A stretch of DNA of 64,000 bases, from the NCBI GenBank assembly GCA_965224705.1, contig OZ245056.1, forward strand, positions 1,184,001 through 1,248,000. Direction: 5' to 3'. The position numbers are program-made. Below are positions 18,001-30,000 of the stretch, one piece after another. This DNA comes from Spirochaetaceae bacterium. GTDB taxonomy: Bacteria; Spirochaetota; Spirochaetia; DSM-2461. How positions within the stretch are numbered: the first letter of the stretch is position 1; every line of letters starts with the position of its first letter.

Positions 18001-21000
18001 ATCGAGTGTTGAAGGAACGGGGGACTCCTCTCTCACAGGCGGAACTCAAAGCCGCCTGGAAAGTCCTACAGACCACCGAAACTTAAAGCGACCGGCCCGG
18101 ATCAAGTGTGTTTCTGGATATTACATGGATGCCCTCTCAGGTGAATGGTCTATTCTGGTATGCCTATATTGTCATTGACGTTTGGAGCCGTGAGATTATT
18201 GGCTGGACCATCCATGATTCTGAGTCGGAAAAATATGCCAGAGAGTTATTCCTTAGAATTAAAGCGAAACGGGACCTCAAGGGAACCTGGCTCCATGCGG
18301 ATAATGGGAATCCCATGTGGGGAGCGGCCTTTGCCGTTACTCTGGCAAACATGGGTATGTTCCTTTCGCATTCCTGTCCTTTGGTGAAAAATGACAATCC
18401 ATTCATAGAGTCATTCTTCAAGACTCTGAAATACCATGCTGGTTATCCGCAGGGCTTTGCCGCTATTGATGAGGCCAGGAGTTGGACGACATATTTCATC
18501 AACTGGTAGAACACAATTCATAGGCATTCGGGAATAGGCTATGTAACACCGCTACAGCGGCGAACAGGTGCATCATCCAATCTATTCTATTCGCCAAAAA
18601 GGAACCGGACACTTCAGGAGGCATGGAAGAAGCACCCTGAACGTTTCCCGAAAAGGAGTCCTCGAATGTGGAGAGAGCGTATGGTTGTCTACCTGAATCC
18701 TGCACGGGGAACCAGAAAGTTTTTATATAAAAAAGCAGGATGATTGTGACAACTTACTTGACACTAAGCGACATGAAGTCCAAAGGAAATCATACAGATG
18801 CTATTTTTTTAAAACCATTTTTAGAAACTCCAAGTTTTATTGTTTCAGGGATATTATATGCTTCTTTAGGAAAATGATAGACCAGAAAATCGTAAAAACG
18901 GTTTTTGTGGTATTAACGCATGATTTTTCTAACAATGCTGACAGTTAGATAGCTCATCATAGTAAAACCTGTCAATCCTTCTAAACCAGCAAAAAAAGCC
19001 ATCCAACCATTTGTCGGAGATATATCACCGTATCCAATAGTTAAAAATGTTATAGCACTAAAATACAAAGCCTGAAAAAATTTAGGCCAACATTTTGACG
19101 GCAAGGTAAGTGTTAGAGTATCCGATACGAAAAAAAATATTATCGCAAAAATAAAAATAAATCCAAATAGAGCAATAATAATTCGACCGGGTTTTGTTCC
19201 ATATTTTCCAGCTAAATTAAAAACCATATTCCAAATAAAAGTTAAATATTTCTTCTTGTGTTTTCCTTCCAAAGCCTTTTGCCATTTATACTCTGCAAAG
19301 CAATCATCCTCTTCGGCGTATAGTCCTTGATTATGGAAATTTAGTCTAAGCATTGCCAGTTGTCTTGAAAGTGAATCAGTGGCATCCCCCTTGCCTTGGT
19401 TCAAGACATTATTTTTGCACTTGTTCCAATCTAAAATAATATACCCTTTGTTTATTGTTTCACTAAAAGATAAAATGCCTTCATCAGATATAGCTGCTTC
19501 TCTTATATCCAATGAACTGTCTATTGTACAGATGTCAAAACGAAGTTTTTTAAAACAAGAACCATTAGTATTGATGGCTGTATTTTTGAAAAAAACACAT
19601 CCAATAAAAACAAGTATATTCTCACCACATATTTCCTTAATACTTAGGTCTATTTTTTCAAAAGACATCTCCTTAAAATAAAACGAAGTATTTTTTACTT
19701 TTCTAAAGAGGAATTTTTCAAATCCAAAGTTCATAAACTCAAAACGAACCTCTTTATTTATCCAATTTGTATCAAAAAAACTAACAATTGAAACATTTAA
19801 TTTATTTTTTGAAAAAAGAAATCCAGATATTTTACTAATTTCTTTTTCTTGTGCAGAATTATTATCAGTAGAGAAAATAGATTTGTTAAATAATATTTTT
19901 TTACAACTAAATTTATTATTAGAAATAACAATATTCCTATGAAAAGTACAATCCATCAACTTAAATTCTGATACCATAATATTGCAATTACTTAAACTAA
20001 AATCATGGTTGATATCTGTCTCTGAAATAGCAAATATTGCTTCTTTATCTCCATCTGGATGAAAATTACATTGCTCTATGAAGATTGACTCAAAGATAAT
20101 ATTTTTAAATACTATTTTACCAAGAAAATCAACATACCGAAAAGAAAAAAATACACTAAAATTTTCTGGTTTATCCTTAAGCATCTTCATTATACCATCT
20201 TGAGATATTTTCCGATGTTTATTAGAAGACCCCTCGAGCTTTAACTTCCACACATTGCTAACCATTGTATACATTTTTTATCTCTTCAAATTTATTTTTA
20301 TAGTATTCAAAAACACTGTCATTTAATAAAAAATCTGACATATATATCAAATCCTTGCCTCCATTATTTTTAACTTTGTCTTTTGCTTTTTTTGACGGAA
20401 AGTAGCGAGTTATACCATATATAGGAATACTTATCTTTTTATTTTTAAGTAATTCAATAATTTCAAGTCCCAGCTCATCTTCACGCTGATCCCCAAGTGA
20501 TATATCAATTATGATTATACTGATGCTATTTCCAACAAAATCCTCGTTCATCATAAATTCTTTTATCGCCTCAAGCCCATATTTAAAAATATTTCCATAT
20601 CTAGAATTATCGTCAAAATGAGTAAAAGAGTCAGGGAATAATTTAAAAGGCCCAACATAATTGGAAAATCTTTCTCTTAAATACTCATAATCACATGGAT
20701 CATCATCGAGCAAATATATATTCATTTGCACTCCTCCTCAACGATAGGTATACCTATCTCAAAATAATTTCTAGAAATATTCATTCTTATCTCCTTTTTA
20801 TATAGCTGCCAAAACAAATGTCTAATCGTAAATAAAGATATACTTGCAAATGGAATTATATTCGATTCAACAATATTCTCTATTCGTGCCTTATCCTCAT
20901 TTGTAATCTCTGGGGTACTATTTCCAATATAAAGATAATTTTCTTCAAATCTGACTCTAGAAACAAGTTTCTCTCTATCAAAATATTTTGCCATATTTAG

Positions 21001-27000: not shown

Positions 27001-30000
27001 TATAAAAATGTTTAATATCTTAAATAGTAAATAGCATTCACTTTTTTTTATATTTTTTGAAGTAATTTTAATTAGAAAATCAGTTGAATCCAAAAGAGAA
27101 GCCTGACTATCAGTGTAAAGGGAAATAGTAGATGAGTCATTATCGTATTTAATCTTGTGACAATATCTTGATAGAAGTGTTTTATCATATTGGCTATTGT
27201 GCATATAAACTCCTTCTAAGTATTAATTGGAGATGGATGATTATTTCTTGTATCATACCAAGCGCTTAGTGTCAAGTAGCCGAATTGCCTCATAATTAAT
27301 CTACTCGAACGACCTTTGAAAGTAAGAGGTCGAGTTATGAGGTTGACAATGAAAACCAGACGGGAATTAGCAAGAGATGAGGCTGTACAGTATAGAAAAG
27401 CCTCAAGGAGGGAGAAGAGTGTGGTTCTGACTCATTTTGTACGGATAACCAGCTATAATCGCTCTTATACCGCGACTCTTCTTCGCTGGTATGGCAAGAG
27501 AGTAAGGGATGACAATCCTAACCAGCCGAAACAGTACATAACAACCAAAAAGAGGCGTAAAGGCGGCGAACGCCCTCCAAAGTACCCTCTGGTTATTAAA
27601 GAAACTGTCGAGTGGCTATGCGGGATGATATAATGGAATACATACCTTGCAAAAAACTAGCAGAAGAGTTCGAGGAGCATCTGAGTAAAGAGGACAACCA
27701 CAATATTTTATTCTCTGGTAAATTCGGTTCCGGTAAAACAACTTTTTTAAAAAGATACTTTGATGACCACAATGATAAATATGAAACCATCCATCTCTAT
27801 CCTGTAAACTATAGCATTTCATCCAGTGAAGATATTTTCAAATTGCTTACAGCAGATATTGCCGGAGAACTGCTCTCCAGGGAGCTTATTAGTATCAATA
27901 AAGAATTTCAAGAATCTTTAAAGAGTGTAATTAAATCAAAAAAAATCTGGGATTTACTTGAAGCCCTGCCCAAAGTGGGCAAAGTTATAGCGATCGGAAA
28001 TACAGTCAAAGATATACTGGCAGATATTAAGAAGCCGGAAAGTGACGTTGACAAAGTCAAAACCTATCTGGATACTATTTCCAGTAATGAAAATAGTAAA
28101 GGAAATAATTGCTCAAGCCCTTAGTAATATTTGTAACAAAAAAAGATTTTAGTTATTGACGATCTGGACAGAATCGATCCAGAGCATTTTTTCAGAATTC
28201 TCAATGTTTTAACCGCATACTGCGATAATAATATCGGACTAGGCTTTGACAAAATAATCCTTGTTTGTGATATTGAGAATGTCAGAACGATTTTTCATCA
28301 TCGTTATGGTCCGGAAGCTGATTTCTATGGGTACATATCCAAGTTTTACAGCAAGGGATTTTTCAGATTTTCTCTTGTTGATCGTATTGAAGAACGTATT
28401 AGAAAGGTCATTTTTACAAGTCTCTCCAACGTGTTAAATGACGACTACATTAATTTCCTTTTAGACTTCTCTGACTTTATATTCCAGCCGGGGATTGTAT
28501 CCATGCTTGACATACATTTATTCACCCAAAATGACTTATCATATGTCATGCATACAAGGCTTAAACCATTTCATAACAATGATGCAACAGTTGACAAATC
28601 CATTGTCATAATTGCGGCTTATATCTATGCGTGGTTTCAATACGACAAAGATAAGGCATTCTTAGCTATCAAGAAATACGGTCAGTCCTCAAAAACAAGA
28701 ATATCAAACCAGTCATCAAGAATCTTCGACCGGTTACTGATTGGCCATGCTCTTGACCGCCTGGTACAGTATCGAGATAGTAACCATATATATGAAAGTA
28801 AATATGAAGAAGATACCAAATATACATGTCAATATAAAGTTCAAATGGCAAATTCTTCTGGTGATTTCTACCTACAGTCAAAGATAACTGAATGGACAAA
28901 ACCCTTCAATACAAATCAGGATCAGGTAAATTGGGATCGTCTTAATGCGGAAGAAATTGAAGACGCTAAAAAGTCAATGATTGCAAAGTTGTTTACAATT
29001 TCAATGCAGAACATAATAAAGCACCTCCCGGAGCATAACCCATGATAAGATGATTCATACCGGAGGAATGTTCGACAAAAACACTCTGAATTTCAATCAA
29101 TATCATCACTCCCCCACCCTCCTGCGCCGTTCAAACCCTACAATGCCAATCGACAATCCTGCCGCAATCCATAGCAGCCATGGCGTGTCCAGCGGAAACA
29201 GGGACGCCGCAGCGGCACTCAGCATGTAGCCAAATGGGACAACGGCAACGGCTGCGGATTCAAGCAGGCCCTGTCTGCCTGCCGCCCTTTCTTCATTCCC
29301 TTTCCAGTAGACAAGATGAACCGTAACAAGATGAATCCAGCCCTGGCAGGCACCGGCGGCGACAAGAAACAAGAGGAGCATAAACAGAGAGGCCAGCCTG
29401 CCGCTGTCAAACCGGATTGCTCCCGCGGCAATGCAGACAGCGGCGAATACAAGGGCGGCAGCTTGTGTTGATCTGTTCCCAACCCTAACGGCCAGTCCGC
29501 TCAGGCCCAGAACCATACCGGAAAGAATGCTTCCTCCCAAAAGAGCGGCAAGGCCATAACCGATAAACTGTGCGCTTAGACCCAGGCGTTCGGTAAAGAA
29601 AAAAGGCAAGTTGAGCAGCACCAGAGTGTTGACCGCCTGCATCCCAAGATACAGAAACACCGGGGCACCCTTGCGCTTAAGCCCAAGAAAATCCTTCGCT
29701 AATACAGAAAAACTCCGGACAGGCGATAGACGGCGGATTTTTTCCCGCCGGGCGCGAAAAGGAAGTTCTTTTAAGAAGACCTCGGATATGCCGCTGGCAA
29801 AAAAGCAGGCACTGTTTATAAGCAGCAGGGGAATCAAACCAAAAGCCGGATAGAGTGCCGCACCAAGCAATTGACCCGCCAGAGAAGATAAATGTCCGGT
29901 GCCGACTCGCAGGCTCAGCAGATCAACCCGTTCGCTCTTCTGATCCAATATGTAGCTAATGACCGCCGGAGAAAAGAAGGCCTGCATCACGGCATTAAGG

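Follow-up and report, generated by a model that had tools for sequence, protein, structure and literature searches.

In the cited part of the preprint on Detocs (10.1101/2023.01.24.525353), defence is reported to require both the kinase histidine and the receiver aspartate. There, a minority of operons carry nuclease or transmembrane domains in place of the PNP effector, a buffering role is proposed for the stand-alone receiver, mutation of the receiver aspartate giving a toxic system, and detection of a Detocs system needs all three profiles. We compared with this system a three-gene operon located in a 64,000-nucleotide stretch of a Spirochaetaceae genome (the window). The operon resembles Detocs in its phosphorelay logic of kinase, receiver and toxic output but possesses neither a DtcA-like kinase nor a receiver-effector fusion. 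The term Detocs-like, used in a first-pass annotation of this DNA, is therefore appropriate as an analogy but not as a statement of membership.

The operon, its neighbourhood and its family

Three open reading frames were recovered on the minus strand. They encode a giant sensor histidine kinase (P0001; 20722..27204, 2160 aa in a single open frame of 31% G+C), a stand-alone receiver (P0002; 20258..20731, 157 aa) and a K+ channel (P0003; 18913..20274, 453 aa). Adjacent genes overlap by 10 nt (kinase and receiver) and 17 nt (receiver and channel), and the three frames are intact across 8.3 kb of 30% G+C DNA. The G+C contents of the kinase, receiver and channel genes are 31.0%, 28.3% and 28.9% respectively, and the tract at 18913-27204 has 30.5% compared with 45.7% at positions 1-12415 and 46.9% at 29101-64000 of the window. 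Both the co-directional operon and the low-G+C island within flanking DNA of about 46% agree with the first-pass annotation, and the operon is foreign-looking and probably horizontally acquired. The defence-gene neighbours claimed there proved stronger than described, as a complete Menshen system (NsnA/B/C; E-values of 8.2e-107, 2.6e-108 and 3.2e-50) was found at 12416-15698, 3.2 kb from the operon. KAP NTPases, with one gene truncated, and pieces of an IS3-type transposase flank the operon. This defence context was observed in the window, a single locus of the kinase family.

No match was found in a PADLOC search of the three proteins, and Pfam matched just the channel (Ion_trans_2, 5.5e-12) and the small protein (Response_reg, 0.048). 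The giant kinase, for which no Pfam, PADLOC or NCBIfam family was found, belongs to an unannotated family of sensor kinases and is a cytoplasmic, soluble protein. A word-index search gave 12 homologues at E<=1e-3 while a scan of genome contigs recovered 36 related loci, the same count as before. The closest relatives are loci L001 (28% identity) and L010 (23%). Searched exhaustively as a profile, the central module of the kinase gave 1172 cluster representatives at E<=1e-3 (50% identity clusters) and 998 at E<=1e-30. The family is thus about a hundred times larger than the 11 proteins among 5.8 billion counted previously, a number that arose from the limits of that search tool. The central module was not found in 400 sampled genomes of the phylum or in 40 relatives, 13 of them of the same genus.

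Domains and conserved residues of the three proteins

The domain assignments of the first-pass annotation were largely upheld for the GHKL-type module and the kinase core of the giant protein, for the receiver and for the pore and beta-helix of the channel, and had to be narrowed for the phosphoribosyltransferase (PRTase) fold. The reported invariance of E366, N370, D425, G427, C1035, C1038 and D1212 was recovered in a 6-sequence alignment. The N-terminal region of the kinase (residues 1-335; 26200..27204, minus strand, as are all kinase features below) is variable and has no assigned fold. A language-model look-up of these residues scored under the recognition mark (1681) and pointed to no consistent family. 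A profile of this region built from 6 members was found in only 2 of the 36 loci, where the central module is present in all 36, and the region is a candidate specificity or sensor part.

Residues from about 345 to 575 (25480..26172) were assigned, by fold and motifs only, as a putative GHKL (Bergerat-fold) ATPase-like module. A profile match to this module was observed in 28 of the 36 loci, and E366, N370, H374, G380, D425, G505, G558 and P566 were invariant in all 28 sequences of an alignment containing the window protein and 27 of the 28 detected loci. The AF2 model (pLDDT 70.9, pTM 0.71) was compared by VIA-align with 48,161 chains and all 50 matches listed were GHKL proteins, with Z values of 8.2 for Topo VI-B, 8.0 for CheA P4, about 7 for kinase CA domains and 6.6 for SpoIIAB, where Z values of 6-8 lie in the range reachable by unrelated folds. 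Matches listed by Foldseek were all to Hsp90, Topo II or GyrB, with a best E-value of 0.013 and none at 1e-3 or better. The language-model look-up pointed to HATPase_c clusters (score 0.95), while the sequence profile found nothing in the PDB, none of the 28 sequences matched Pfam and hhalign gave a probability of 0.4. Fold and motifs argue for this module, with the sequence methods and Foldseek all below significance. It is followed by a conserved middle region without an assigned fold (residues about 580-790; 24835..25467), matched by profile in 15 of the 36 loci. In the two-gene forms of the kinase, the split falls just after this region and the second protein starts with the central module.

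The first half of the central module (residues about 786-1045; 24070..24849) is an alpha/beta domain in which strands and helices alternate in the AF2 model. It carries an H802-x7-H810 motif, a PRPP-loop-like stretch from P928 to T935 and a C1035-x2-C1038 motif. Residues H802, H810, P928, T935, W1029, C1035 and C1038 were identical in 150 of 150 sequences (the best 150 of the 1172 representatives). The second half contains a type I PRTase-fold domain (residues about 1084-1290; 23335..23955) with the PRPP loop at D1212 followed by C1282-x2-C1285. A model of the 515-aa module (pLDDT 75) gave nine Foldseek matches in the PDB at E<=1e-3, all of HPRT or OPRT type, and VIA-align placed model residues 299-503 on 4rhu_F with Z 13.0 and an rmsd of 2.6 A over 128 residues. 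Weak sequence support comes from OPRT 3mjd in the PDB (E 0.011), from Pfam matches at E<=1 among 34 members (PRTase_2 in eight, Pribosyltran in five and PRTase-CE in three) and from the kinase of L027, which matches PADLOC ShosT at 1.3e-4. Two tandem PRTase-fold domains had been proposed, of which the second stands. All structural matches of the module fall on the second half, leaving the first without one, and when the two halves were aligned with each other by hhalign, just a strand and the CxxC motif aligned (E 0.11). The predicted PRTase fold at the end of the central module is thus well supported. In the same best 150 representatives, the first aspartate of the PRPP loop was observed in 149 and the second in 142, while the window loop has D1212 followed by V1213 and so departs from the D-D consensus.

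A long helical linker (residues about 1300-1900; 21505..23307), matched by profile in 19 of the 36 loci, contains a coiled-coil tract of (EKL)n type. These repeats, at residues 1524-1544, are encoded by a tandem repeat at 22566-22648 with a period of 9 nt, 9.2 copies and 95% matches. The histidine-kinase core (residues about 1915-2160; 20725..21462) comprises a DHp domain with His1955 and a CA domain with Asn2070, which correspond to the previously noted His215 and Asn330. We aligned the 450 C-terminal residues of the window protein with those of 31 loci, leaving out the five of the 36 whose 3' end is cut, and the profile of these 32 C-termini matched, at E<=0.01 and across DHp and CA, 15 histidine kinases in the PDB (best 4jas, 1.2e-8, and 2c2a, 3.2e-8). 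Homologue P0006 passes Pfam HATPase_c at 5.6e-9, and in L008 the CA domain lies on a separate gene (HATPase_c 3.5e-17). Among the best 150 of the 1172 representatives, the core was present in 132; it was found in 130 of the 132 representatives in which the central module is followed by over 700 aa. The histidine is conserved in all 132 cores, the N-box Asn in 129 and the G2 Gly in 128. In the window clade, G1 reads Asn-Ser-Thr-Pro and the Gly of G2 is replaced by Ser, changes common to the window, L001 and L010, and the window kinase has Gln instead of Glu before the N-box Asn.

The 157-aa small protein is predicted from its family profile to be a receiver domain. At E<=0.01 this profile, built from 31 first-downstream proteins, matched 135 receiver domains in the PDB, with 3h5i the best natural one (9.2e-12), and a model made from 12 Pfam-supported relatives alone retrieves the window receiver in the first round. 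Just 2 of 30 receivers of related loci pass Pfam's own cut-off. The key residues in the window are the acidic D9-D11, the acceptor Asp76, conserved in at least 90% of the family, and Thr108. The beta5 lysine is likewise conserved in at least 90% of receivers but is replaced by Met131 in the window. No internal receiver domain was found in the giant kinases and none in the channel protein, and the small receiver is therefore the sole acceptor in the window.

The channel consists of a pentapeptide-repeat cytoplasmic domain (about 19240-20157, minus strand), assigned by homology, and a two-helix K+ pore (18916-19182, minus strand) with the canonical filter TIGYGD at residues 412-417. The filter and helices can be read directly from the protein, and Ion_trans_2 spans residues 371-452 (5.5e-12). 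We found 99 relatives at E<=1e-3, most of them 550-620 aa long and matching over as much as 90% of the query. Pentapeptide_3 occurs together with Ion_trans_2 in about half of these relatives; a conserved Phe occurs every ~5 to 12 residues in an alignment of 57 sequences. Kinase modules were observed near none of the channel relatives in 80 metagenome loci (about 35 with more than 3 kb upstream), and no receiver or kinase lies beside the channel in three genome loci scanned with Pfam (L045, L046 and L049), where its neighbours are fumarase, alpha-2-macroglobulin, sugar isomerases, a PIN-domain protein, a chemotaxis receptor and a GGDEF cyclase. The channel family is widespread and otherwise unattached to the giant kinase, and the trio of kinase, receiver and pentapeptide channel is a single case so far.

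Outputs of the related loci

As described in the first-pass annotation, the order is kinase, receiver and then a swappable toxic module. Of the 30 related loci with downstream DNA, 26 have a receiver-like gene after the kinase. The outputs of these 30 loci vary, with receiver-PNP in three (matching PADLOC PDC-M60C at 1e-13 to 1e-15), a fusion of the receiver with Shedu nuclease (SduA) in one, a metallophosphatase in one, DUF2971 in two and membrane proteins in 14, the rest having no assigned output type. One of the 14 is L030, where a second, unrelated K+ channel (Ion_trans_2 6e-15) comes after a strong receiver (Response_reg 1.5e-12). A receiver (1.3e-9) and a 3-TM module form one protein in L013 but two adjacent genes in L004, L005, L009 and L025, which suggests that receiver and membrane effector act together. 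Since receivers are fused to PNP, SduA and 3-TM effectors in relatives, the receiver of this family is likely to be the output switch.

A proposed phosphorelay and its alternatives

We favour, with modest confidence, an acquired three-gene phosphorelay of abortive-infection type that follows Detocs logic with an unrelated sensor kinase. A phosphorelay between kinase and receiver is highly probable and a role in defence or conflict is likely, while direct gating of the channel by the receiver is put forward tentatively, the contact between these two proteins being the most conjectural step. The receiver might instead not be the gate of a defence or conflict phosphorelay, which we consider unlikely although worth some weight. 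It could be a phosphate sink like DtcB that keeps the kinase quiet, with control of the channel falling to the kinase itself, to voltage or ions, or to a ligand that the PRTase or GHKL modules produce or remove; alternatively, the channel could be an immunity or repair partner. The buffer role proposed for the stand-alone Detocs receiver, whose Asp mutant is toxic (cited part of 10.1101/2023.01.24.525353), the missing beta5 Lys and the channel relatives that work without a receiver partner are consistent with this, as is the PRTase loop kept in the family, which makes an enzymatic or ligand-based signal conceivable. However, the window holds no second receiver-bearing effector that a buffer might protect, receiver and effector are joined covalently in relatives (PNP, SduA and the 3-TM module of L013) and the receiver and channel genes share the 17-nt overlap. 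Housekeeping signalling, where the kinase would read the nucleotide or PRPP state and tune K+ flux through a receiver-regulated channel in an unusual osmotic or metabolic circuit, is improbable. Regulators such as PurR use PRTase-fold domains to sense metabolites, two-component systems such as Kdp are well known to control K+ transport, and the channel family occurs elsewhere in ordinary metabolic neighbourhoods. Against such a circuit, the kinase-receiver pair of relatives drives ATP-nucleosidase-type PNP, Shedu nuclease and small multi-TM proteins, none of them a homeostatic output; the module was not found in the 13 same-genus, 11 same-family and 400 phylum genomes searched; and the operon has foreign G+C and sits between the Menshen system, KAP NTPases and transposase remnants.

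The departures from consensus at Met131, the kinase boxes and the PRPP loop could mean that the window copy is impaired or works differently. A decaying or inactive remnant that no longer signals, as the altered receiver Lys, G2 box and PRPP loop and the flanking transposase fragments and truncated KAP gene might suggest, is nevertheless very improbable given the three intact frames and the presence of His1955, Asn2070, Asp76 and the K+ filter; moreover, the G1 and G2 changes common to L001 and L010 were kept within the clade and are not random damage. We give scarcely any credence to a divergent Detocs member, a DtcA/DtcB pair with a transmembrane-type DtcC that DefenseFinder would call Detocs. 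Detocs operons with transmembrane effectors exist (cited part of 10.1101/2023.01.24.525353), and PDC-M60B and PDC-M60C, the latter matched by the three receiver-PNP loci, resemble DtcB and DtcC in length and domain content, so that PDC-M60 would be Detocs. Yet the kinases of the window and eight related loci match no PADLOC model labelled PDC-M60 and most of them match none at E<=0.01, that of L030 matching just PDC-M43B (CA domain) and that of L027 just ShosT. Furthermore, Pfam gave no TPR or other DtcA-like feature, the window effector has no receiver domain, the related receiver-PNP loci carry one receiver gene rather than two and detection of Detocs requires all three profiles (cited part of the same preprint).

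In the favoured phosphorelay, the giant soluble kinase would be kept inactive until its sensory part detects a cue, presumably one tied to infection. This part would comprise the variable N-terminus, the GHKL ATPase-like module and the PRTase-fold module, the last of which could bind PRPP or a nucleotide. The signal would reach the DHp-CA core by way of the long helical region, leading to phosphorylation of His1955, and the phosphoryl group would then be transferred to Asp76 of the small receiver. The phosphorylated receiver may bind the pentapeptide-repeat domain of the channel and open the K+ pore, and the resulting K+ efflux would collapse the membrane potential and cause growth to stop or the cell to die before the phage matures. 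Among the relatives, toxic outputs are exchanged modularly while the kinase and receiver stay.

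The operon and the surrounding defence island

Three open reading frames on the minus strand make up the operon. These are the genes for a giant sensor kinase (P0001, 2160 aa, 20722-27204), a receiver (P0002, 157 aa, 20258-20731) and a channel (P0003, 453 aa, 18913-20274), and adjacent genes share 10 and 17 nt. The first-pass annotation had read these genes as a Detocs-like system of a GHKL-PRTase kinase, a receiver and a K+ channel. Translation of the window reproduced its three positions exactly; the observation was confirmed and its interpretation is supported with the corrections described below. 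The G+C content across 18913-27204 is 30.5% as compared to 45.7% and 46.9% in the outer parts of the window, and an intact 6.5-kb frame cannot have arisen by chance in such AT-rich DNA. A scan for sigma-70 promoters and terminators returned 59 promoter-like sites in this AT-rich DNA, where shuffled sequences gave 46.9 +/- 7.5, a count that carries no information at such a base composition. Only the channel pore was recognised by Pfam, with the receiver giving a sub-threshold Response_reg match (0.048). No family was found for the giant kinase in Pfam, PADLOC or NCBIfam, nor for the receiver in NCBIfam.

A complete Menshen system is located upstream on the plus strand (12416-15698), where NsnA, NsnB (an AAA_15/DUF3696 ATPase) and NsnC were matched by PADLOC at 8.2e-107, 2.6e-108 and 3.2e-50 respectively. 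It is followed on the same strand by element debris (15713-18509) which consists of a 98-aa fragment of a Type III methyltransferase, a 388-aa KAP-family NTPase resembling PDC-S20/PifA and three ORFs that jointly resemble a broken IS3-type transposase (HTH_Tnp_1, HTH_32 and rve). A KAP NTPase gene truncated to 170 aa (27612-28124, plus strand) lies beyond the operon on its other flank. The surroundings of the operon are a defence island that bears traces of rearrangement.

The giant sensor kinase and its family

The kinase core was analysed from an alignment of the C-terminal 450 aa of P0001 with those of 31 related loci, with the five of the 36 loci that have cut 3' ends omitted. The resulting profile matches 15 histidine kinases in the PDB at E<=0.01 across both the DHp and CA domains, the HK853-type structures 4jas and 2c2a being found at about 1e-8. 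The H-box histidine is His1955 and the N-box asparagine is Asn2070, so that P0001 has the phospho-accepting histidine and the ATP-binding CA domain of a sensor histidine kinase, as does the kinase of Detocs. Pfam HATPase_c was passed outright by one homologue and by one split-off CA gene. The latter was noticed in a WOR-3 MAG (L008:5052-5468), where the CA domain (HATPase_c, 3.5e-17) forms a 138-aa gene of its own and the kinase is thus in three pieces. No internal receiver domain was observed in any kinase examined. The helical region contains an (EKL)n coiled-coil tract, which is encoded by a 9-nt tandem repeat at 22566-22648 (9.2 copies, 95% matches); the length of this repeat could differ among strains.

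The first 335 residues of P0001 lack conservation within the family, and no fold could be assigned to them. Rep_trans and RdRP were considered for this region and rejected, as the language-model rows were scattered and below the recognition mark. The module that follows was compared with GHKL proteins, which are characterised by the Bergerat fold, an N-box (E-x3-N), a D-x-G motif and a glycine-rich lid. Eight positions are invariant in 28 sequences, and their order agrees with that of a Bergerat fold. When the AF2 model of the module (pLDDT 70.9, pTM 0.71) was compared with 48,161 chains by VIA-align, the best 50 were all GHKL proteins (Z 6.2-8.2), and the Foldseek list consisted entirely of Hsp90, Topo II or GyrB (best E 0.013). 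The language-model look-up also returned HATPase_c clusters at 0.95. The sequence profile of the module retrieved nothing relevant from the PDB (best kinase 4i5s, E 0.78), Pfam gave HATPase hits in none of 28 members, and hhalign with the family's own CA domain aligned the N-box alone at a probability of 0.4%. We consider a GHKL type for this ATPase-like module to be probable, not proven.

Type I phosphoribosyltransferases (PRTases) have a five-stranded alpha/beta core and a PRPP loop in which two acidic residues are followed by a Thr/Gly-rich turn. The AF2 model of the central module, residues ~786-1290 of P0001, has a pLDDT of 75. Nine Foldseek matches were obtained for it at E<=1e-3, all of them HPRT or OPRT, and VIA-align gave Z 13.0 with an rmsd of 2.6 A over 128 aligned residues. 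The structural matches are confined to model residues 299-503, which correspond to protein residues 1084-1288. One PRTase domain, formed by the second half of the module, is therefore well supported by the model. Of the tandem PRTase domains that had been proposed for this region, the second is thus borne out, and the first is a candidate on which no structural match of the whole-module model falls. The first half shows an alpha/beta pattern of secondary structure and a stretch that resembles a PRPP loop, and an hhalign comparison of the two halves was not significant (E 0.11 over 20 columns), giving no sign of an internal duplication. Weak sequence signals concur with the PRTase reading, since the three hits of a profile of 34 members were all PRTases (E 0.3-0.65).

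Several positions of the central module were found to be highly conserved in the 150 best representatives of the family. The first Asp of the PRPP loop is present in 149 and the second in 142, the window protein having D1212-V1213. H802, H810, P928, T935, W1029, C1035 and C1038 (window ~24091-24801) are identical in all 150. Because the two histidines and two cysteines among these never vary, the alignment suggests a plausible metal site, structural or regulatory, at H802/H810/C1035/C1038. A second CxxC (C1282 and C1285) is retained in only about half of the family representatives. The domain shares its predicted fold and the PRPP-loop signature with HPRT, OPRT and APRT. Unlike type I PRTases, it is embedded in a kinase and flanked by CxxC, and the copy in the window is without the second loop Asp. 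The PRTase copy of one related kinase (L027) matches the defence PRTase ShosT at 1.3e-4.

The family is large. A word-index search with the kinase gave 12 proteins, and an exhaustive profile search with the central module in 1.84 billion cluster representatives retrieved 1172 (E<=1e-3), of which 998 reach E<=1e-30; the 1172 are clusters at 50% identity. Architecture was counted in the best 150: half of these (75) are full-length forms, every one with the GHKL module, 60 start at the central module and represent the second gene of a split form, and 15 are intermediate. A kinase core terminates 132 of the 150, including 130 of the 132 which have more than 700 aa after the central module; this count was made with the C-terminal 380 aa, as the full-length search missed 37 long proteins through a search-space artefact. 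Among the 132 cores, the histidine is present in all, the N-box Asn in 129 and the G2 Gly in 128. The central module went undetected in 400 sampled genomes of the same phylum and in 40 relatives (13 of the same genus and 11 of the same family, several genomes being incomplete), and tblastn found no match to it in 72,556 plasmids and 50,697 phage records.

Receiver, channel and exchangeable outputs

CheY-like receivers are recognised by an acidic pocket, an acceptor Asp, a Thr or Ser in beta4 and a Lys in beta5. In P0002, the acceptor is Asp76 and both D9-D11 and Thr108 are present. Met131 occupies the position of the beta5 lysine, which at least 90% of 31 relatives retain. A profile of the 31 first-downstream proteins, into which long proteins were entered as N-terminal parts, matches 135 receiver domains of the PDB at E<=0.01. 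Furthermore, a model built from the 12 relatives with Pfam Response_reg at E<=0.01 recovered 15 of the 19 others in the first round, P0002 included, and missed those of L005, L027, L028 and L033. A jackhmmer search seeded by the receiver of L030 recovered no other receiver.

In a K+ channel pore, two helices flank a pore helix and the filter reads T-x-G-Y-G-D. P0003 has TIGYGD at residues 412-417 with a helix on either side and matches Ion_trans_2 at 5.5e-12, above the Pfam cut-off; the filter residues are invariant in 57 relatives. Pentapeptide-repeat proteins carry tandem five-residue repeats which fold into a right-handed beta-helix. By homology, the cytoplasmic 340 residues of P0003 probably place it in a large family of pentapeptide-repeat K+ channels, with 99 relatives found at E<=1e-3 and Pfam Pentapeptide_3 in about half of these. 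Pfam matched no pentapeptide repeat in P0003 itself; Pentapeptide_3 or Pentapeptide_4 is present in relatives whose alignment covers this region, and a conserved Phe was observed every ~5 to 12 residues in the family alignment. Proteins named 'potassium channel family protein' by NCBI, which occur in Bacteroidota and others and have Pentapeptide_3 with Ion_trans_2, align with P0003 over 60-90% of its length at 23-36% identity. P0003 has the linker and pore in common with these channels, T-I-G-Y-G-D included, and is shorter (453 aa versus 550-620 aa for most), its N-terminus lacking ~100-170 aa.

P0003 is the sole channel of this family that we found adjoining a receiver and such a kinase. The kinase modules are missing from all of the best 80 metagenome loci of the channel relatives, ~35 of which have more than 3 kb upstream, and a single-protein query found no close metagenome relatives. 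Six genome loci were fetched, and no receiver or kinase lies beside the channel at the three that were scanned with Pfam (L045, L046 and L049). The neighbours there are fumarase, alpha-2-macroglobulin, sugar isomerases, a PIN-domain protein, a chemotaxis receptor and a GGDEF cyclase.

The outputs encoded after the kinase were surveyed in the 30 of 36 related loci which have downstream DNA. A fusion of a receiver with a PNP, matching PADLOC PDC-M60C, was found in three (L011, L031 and L035), a fusion of a receiver with the Shedu nuclease SduA in one (L002), a metallophosphatase protein in one (L027) and a receiver with a DUF2971 protein in two (L016 and L033). Membrane proteins were found in 14, and the remaining nine have soluble parts of unknown type. 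Of the membrane outputs, nine are small proteins that span the membrane with three to four TM segments and three have a single TM segment. One more is a receiver-3TM fusion (L013), and the last is that of L030, where a different K+ channel (Ion_trans_2 6e-15) follows a strong receiver (1.5e-12). L013 is one chain and its counterparts in L004, L005, L009 and L025 are two genes, a receiver and a 3TM protein. Of the evidence available, this fusion argues most strongly that a stand-alone receiver acts on whichever membrane protein is encoded after it.

Two further genes were noticed in these loci. A ThyX gene (flavin-dependent thymidylate synthase) lies directly after the receiver-effector gene in a Dysgonamonadaceae MAG (L001:16726-17355) and a Brocadiaceae MAG (L017:9336-9971). 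The ThyX proteins of these two distant loci match at 2e-101, and a Bro-N gene is next after ThyX in L001. ThyX may be a component of some versions of the system or a marker of a prophage setting. In Flavobacterium chilense, a Zeta-toxin-like P-loop protein is encoded two genes downstream of the receiver-PNP (L035:16994-17797), which hints at a defence or toxin-antitoxin neighbourhood.

Relation to Detocs and the proposed phosphorelay

According to the Detocs preprint (Rousset et al., 10.1101/2023.01.24.525353), the system consists of DtcA (a TPR-kinase), DtcB (a stand-alone receiver) and DtcC (a receiver-PNP), and all three are needed for its detection. The preprint also states that both the His of the kinase and the Asp of the receiver are required for phage protection and that the effector is a PNP in 80% and otherwise a nuclease or transmembrane protein. 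Detocs uses a two-component phosphorelay as an immune switch and not as a transcription circuit, and the same use is proposed for the window operon. They have in common the conserved kinase His, the receiver Asp, a stand-alone receiver gene and, in the window family, exchangeable outputs of the PNP, nuclease or transmembrane kind. The receiver-PNP proteins of three related loci are DtcC-like.

The operon might accordingly be read as a plain member of Detocs. Unlike DtcA, the window kinase consists of a variable N-terminus, GHKL and PRTase modules, a helical region and a kinase core, and has neither TPRs nor a PADLOC match. No TPR or other Pfam family was found in it at E<=1 except for one chance-level hit, so the kinase is not homologous to DtcA as judged by Pfam and PADLOC. 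PADLOC also has no model for six of eight related kinases, the other two being matched by PDC-M43B (CA domain) and ShosT only. The window-family kinase is often split over two genes, unlike that of Detocs. The related loci have a single receiver as against two in Detocs, and those with a receiver-PNP lack a second such gene. In the window, the effector is a selective K+ channel without a receiver domain, unlike DtcC; the cell-killing effector of Detocs would have as its counterpart a membrane channel of presumed toxicity. Because the kinase is unrelated by Pfam and PADLOC, there is one receiver and a receiver-effector fusion is missing, the operon fails membership in Detocs and appears to share its working principle.

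Other known systems were compared in the same way. PADLOC PDC-M60B is matched by the receivers of L008 (2.3e-6) and L030 (2.4e-4), and PDC-M43B by the CA domain of the L030 kinase (1.4e-12). The PDC-M60 and PDC-M43 matches span only generic receiver, PNP and CA parts, the system meaning being unstated in PADLOC, and are absent for every window protein and for the sensory parts of all kinases tested. The legend of Fig. 6F in the DefensePredictor paper (PMC13092281) names TPR, HATPase, REC and a purine phosphorylase, which reads as Detocs-type and not as the window kinase family. Kaur et al. 2020 (PMC7159879) report no histidine kinase among the effectors of the vWA-associated systems that they treat. 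The CARF pore Chp1 (bioRxiv 10.64898/2026.08.05.743128), a ligand-gated membrane effector of cyclic-nucleotide defence, protects by depolarising the membrane with a tetrameric pore that is gated, as the window system is proposed to do. The gate of Chp1 is cyclic oligoadenylate on a fused CARF domain, whereas that proposed here is a separate phosphorylated receiver, and the window pore is a canonical selective K+ channel, unlike that of Chp1. Neither the GHKL-PRTase kinase family nor a receiver-gated K+ channel in defence was described in the full-text literature searched, most subscription journals lying outside its coverage.

The most economical reading of the operon is a Detocs-like abortive-infection relay. 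The sensor kinase would phosphorylate its own His1955, the phosphoryl group would pass to Asp76 of the receiver, and we infer that the phosphorylated receiver would then open the channel. The receiver may instead serve as a buffer, with the channel controlled by other means. Complex prediction between the receiver and channel residues 1-345, run with a separate alignment for each partner, gave a median of 0.30 against a mark of 0.32 (runs 0.55, 0.01 and 0.30), which speaks neither for nor against binding. The receiver-effector fusions of relatives favour the receiver as the output switch. A metabolic K+ control circuit would be another explanation; the genome loci of the channel relatives have enzymes of metabolism among their neighbours, which would fit it, and the operon itself lies in a defence island, which speaks against it. 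Less probably, the operon is a decayed copy; the Met131 substitution and the nearby debris would fit this reading, and the retained His1955, Asp76 and channel filter speak against it.

Within the Detocs-like relay, a stronger claim can be made: that the phosphorylated receiver directly opens a K+-selective channel as a suicide switch, and that the giant sensors, which form more than 1000 clusters and are named in no database, sense infection with a nucleotide or PRPP pocket of PRTase fold to which a GHKL ATPase is coupled. We regard this as possible and rather unlikely as a whole. If true, it would be a two-component system with ion-channel gating as its output, new to both the two-component and the ion-channel fields, and PRTase-GHKL sensing would be a new principle in bacterial immunity together with a plug-in effector slot. 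The K+ channel output seen in the window genome stands alone so far and is unusually interesting, and loss-of-function controls are at hand in the His, Asp and filter residues. The family raises the questions of which infection cue is detected by a PRTase-fold plus GHKL sensor and how one kinase-receiver pair can drive an ATP nucleosidase, a Shedu nuclease and membrane proteins alike. If the relay reading holds, the window family would be a second lineage of phosphorelay immunity, large and without a name; Detocs would then be no isolated curiosity, and immunity based on a phosphorelay would have at least two origins, with sensor kinases that are unrelated.
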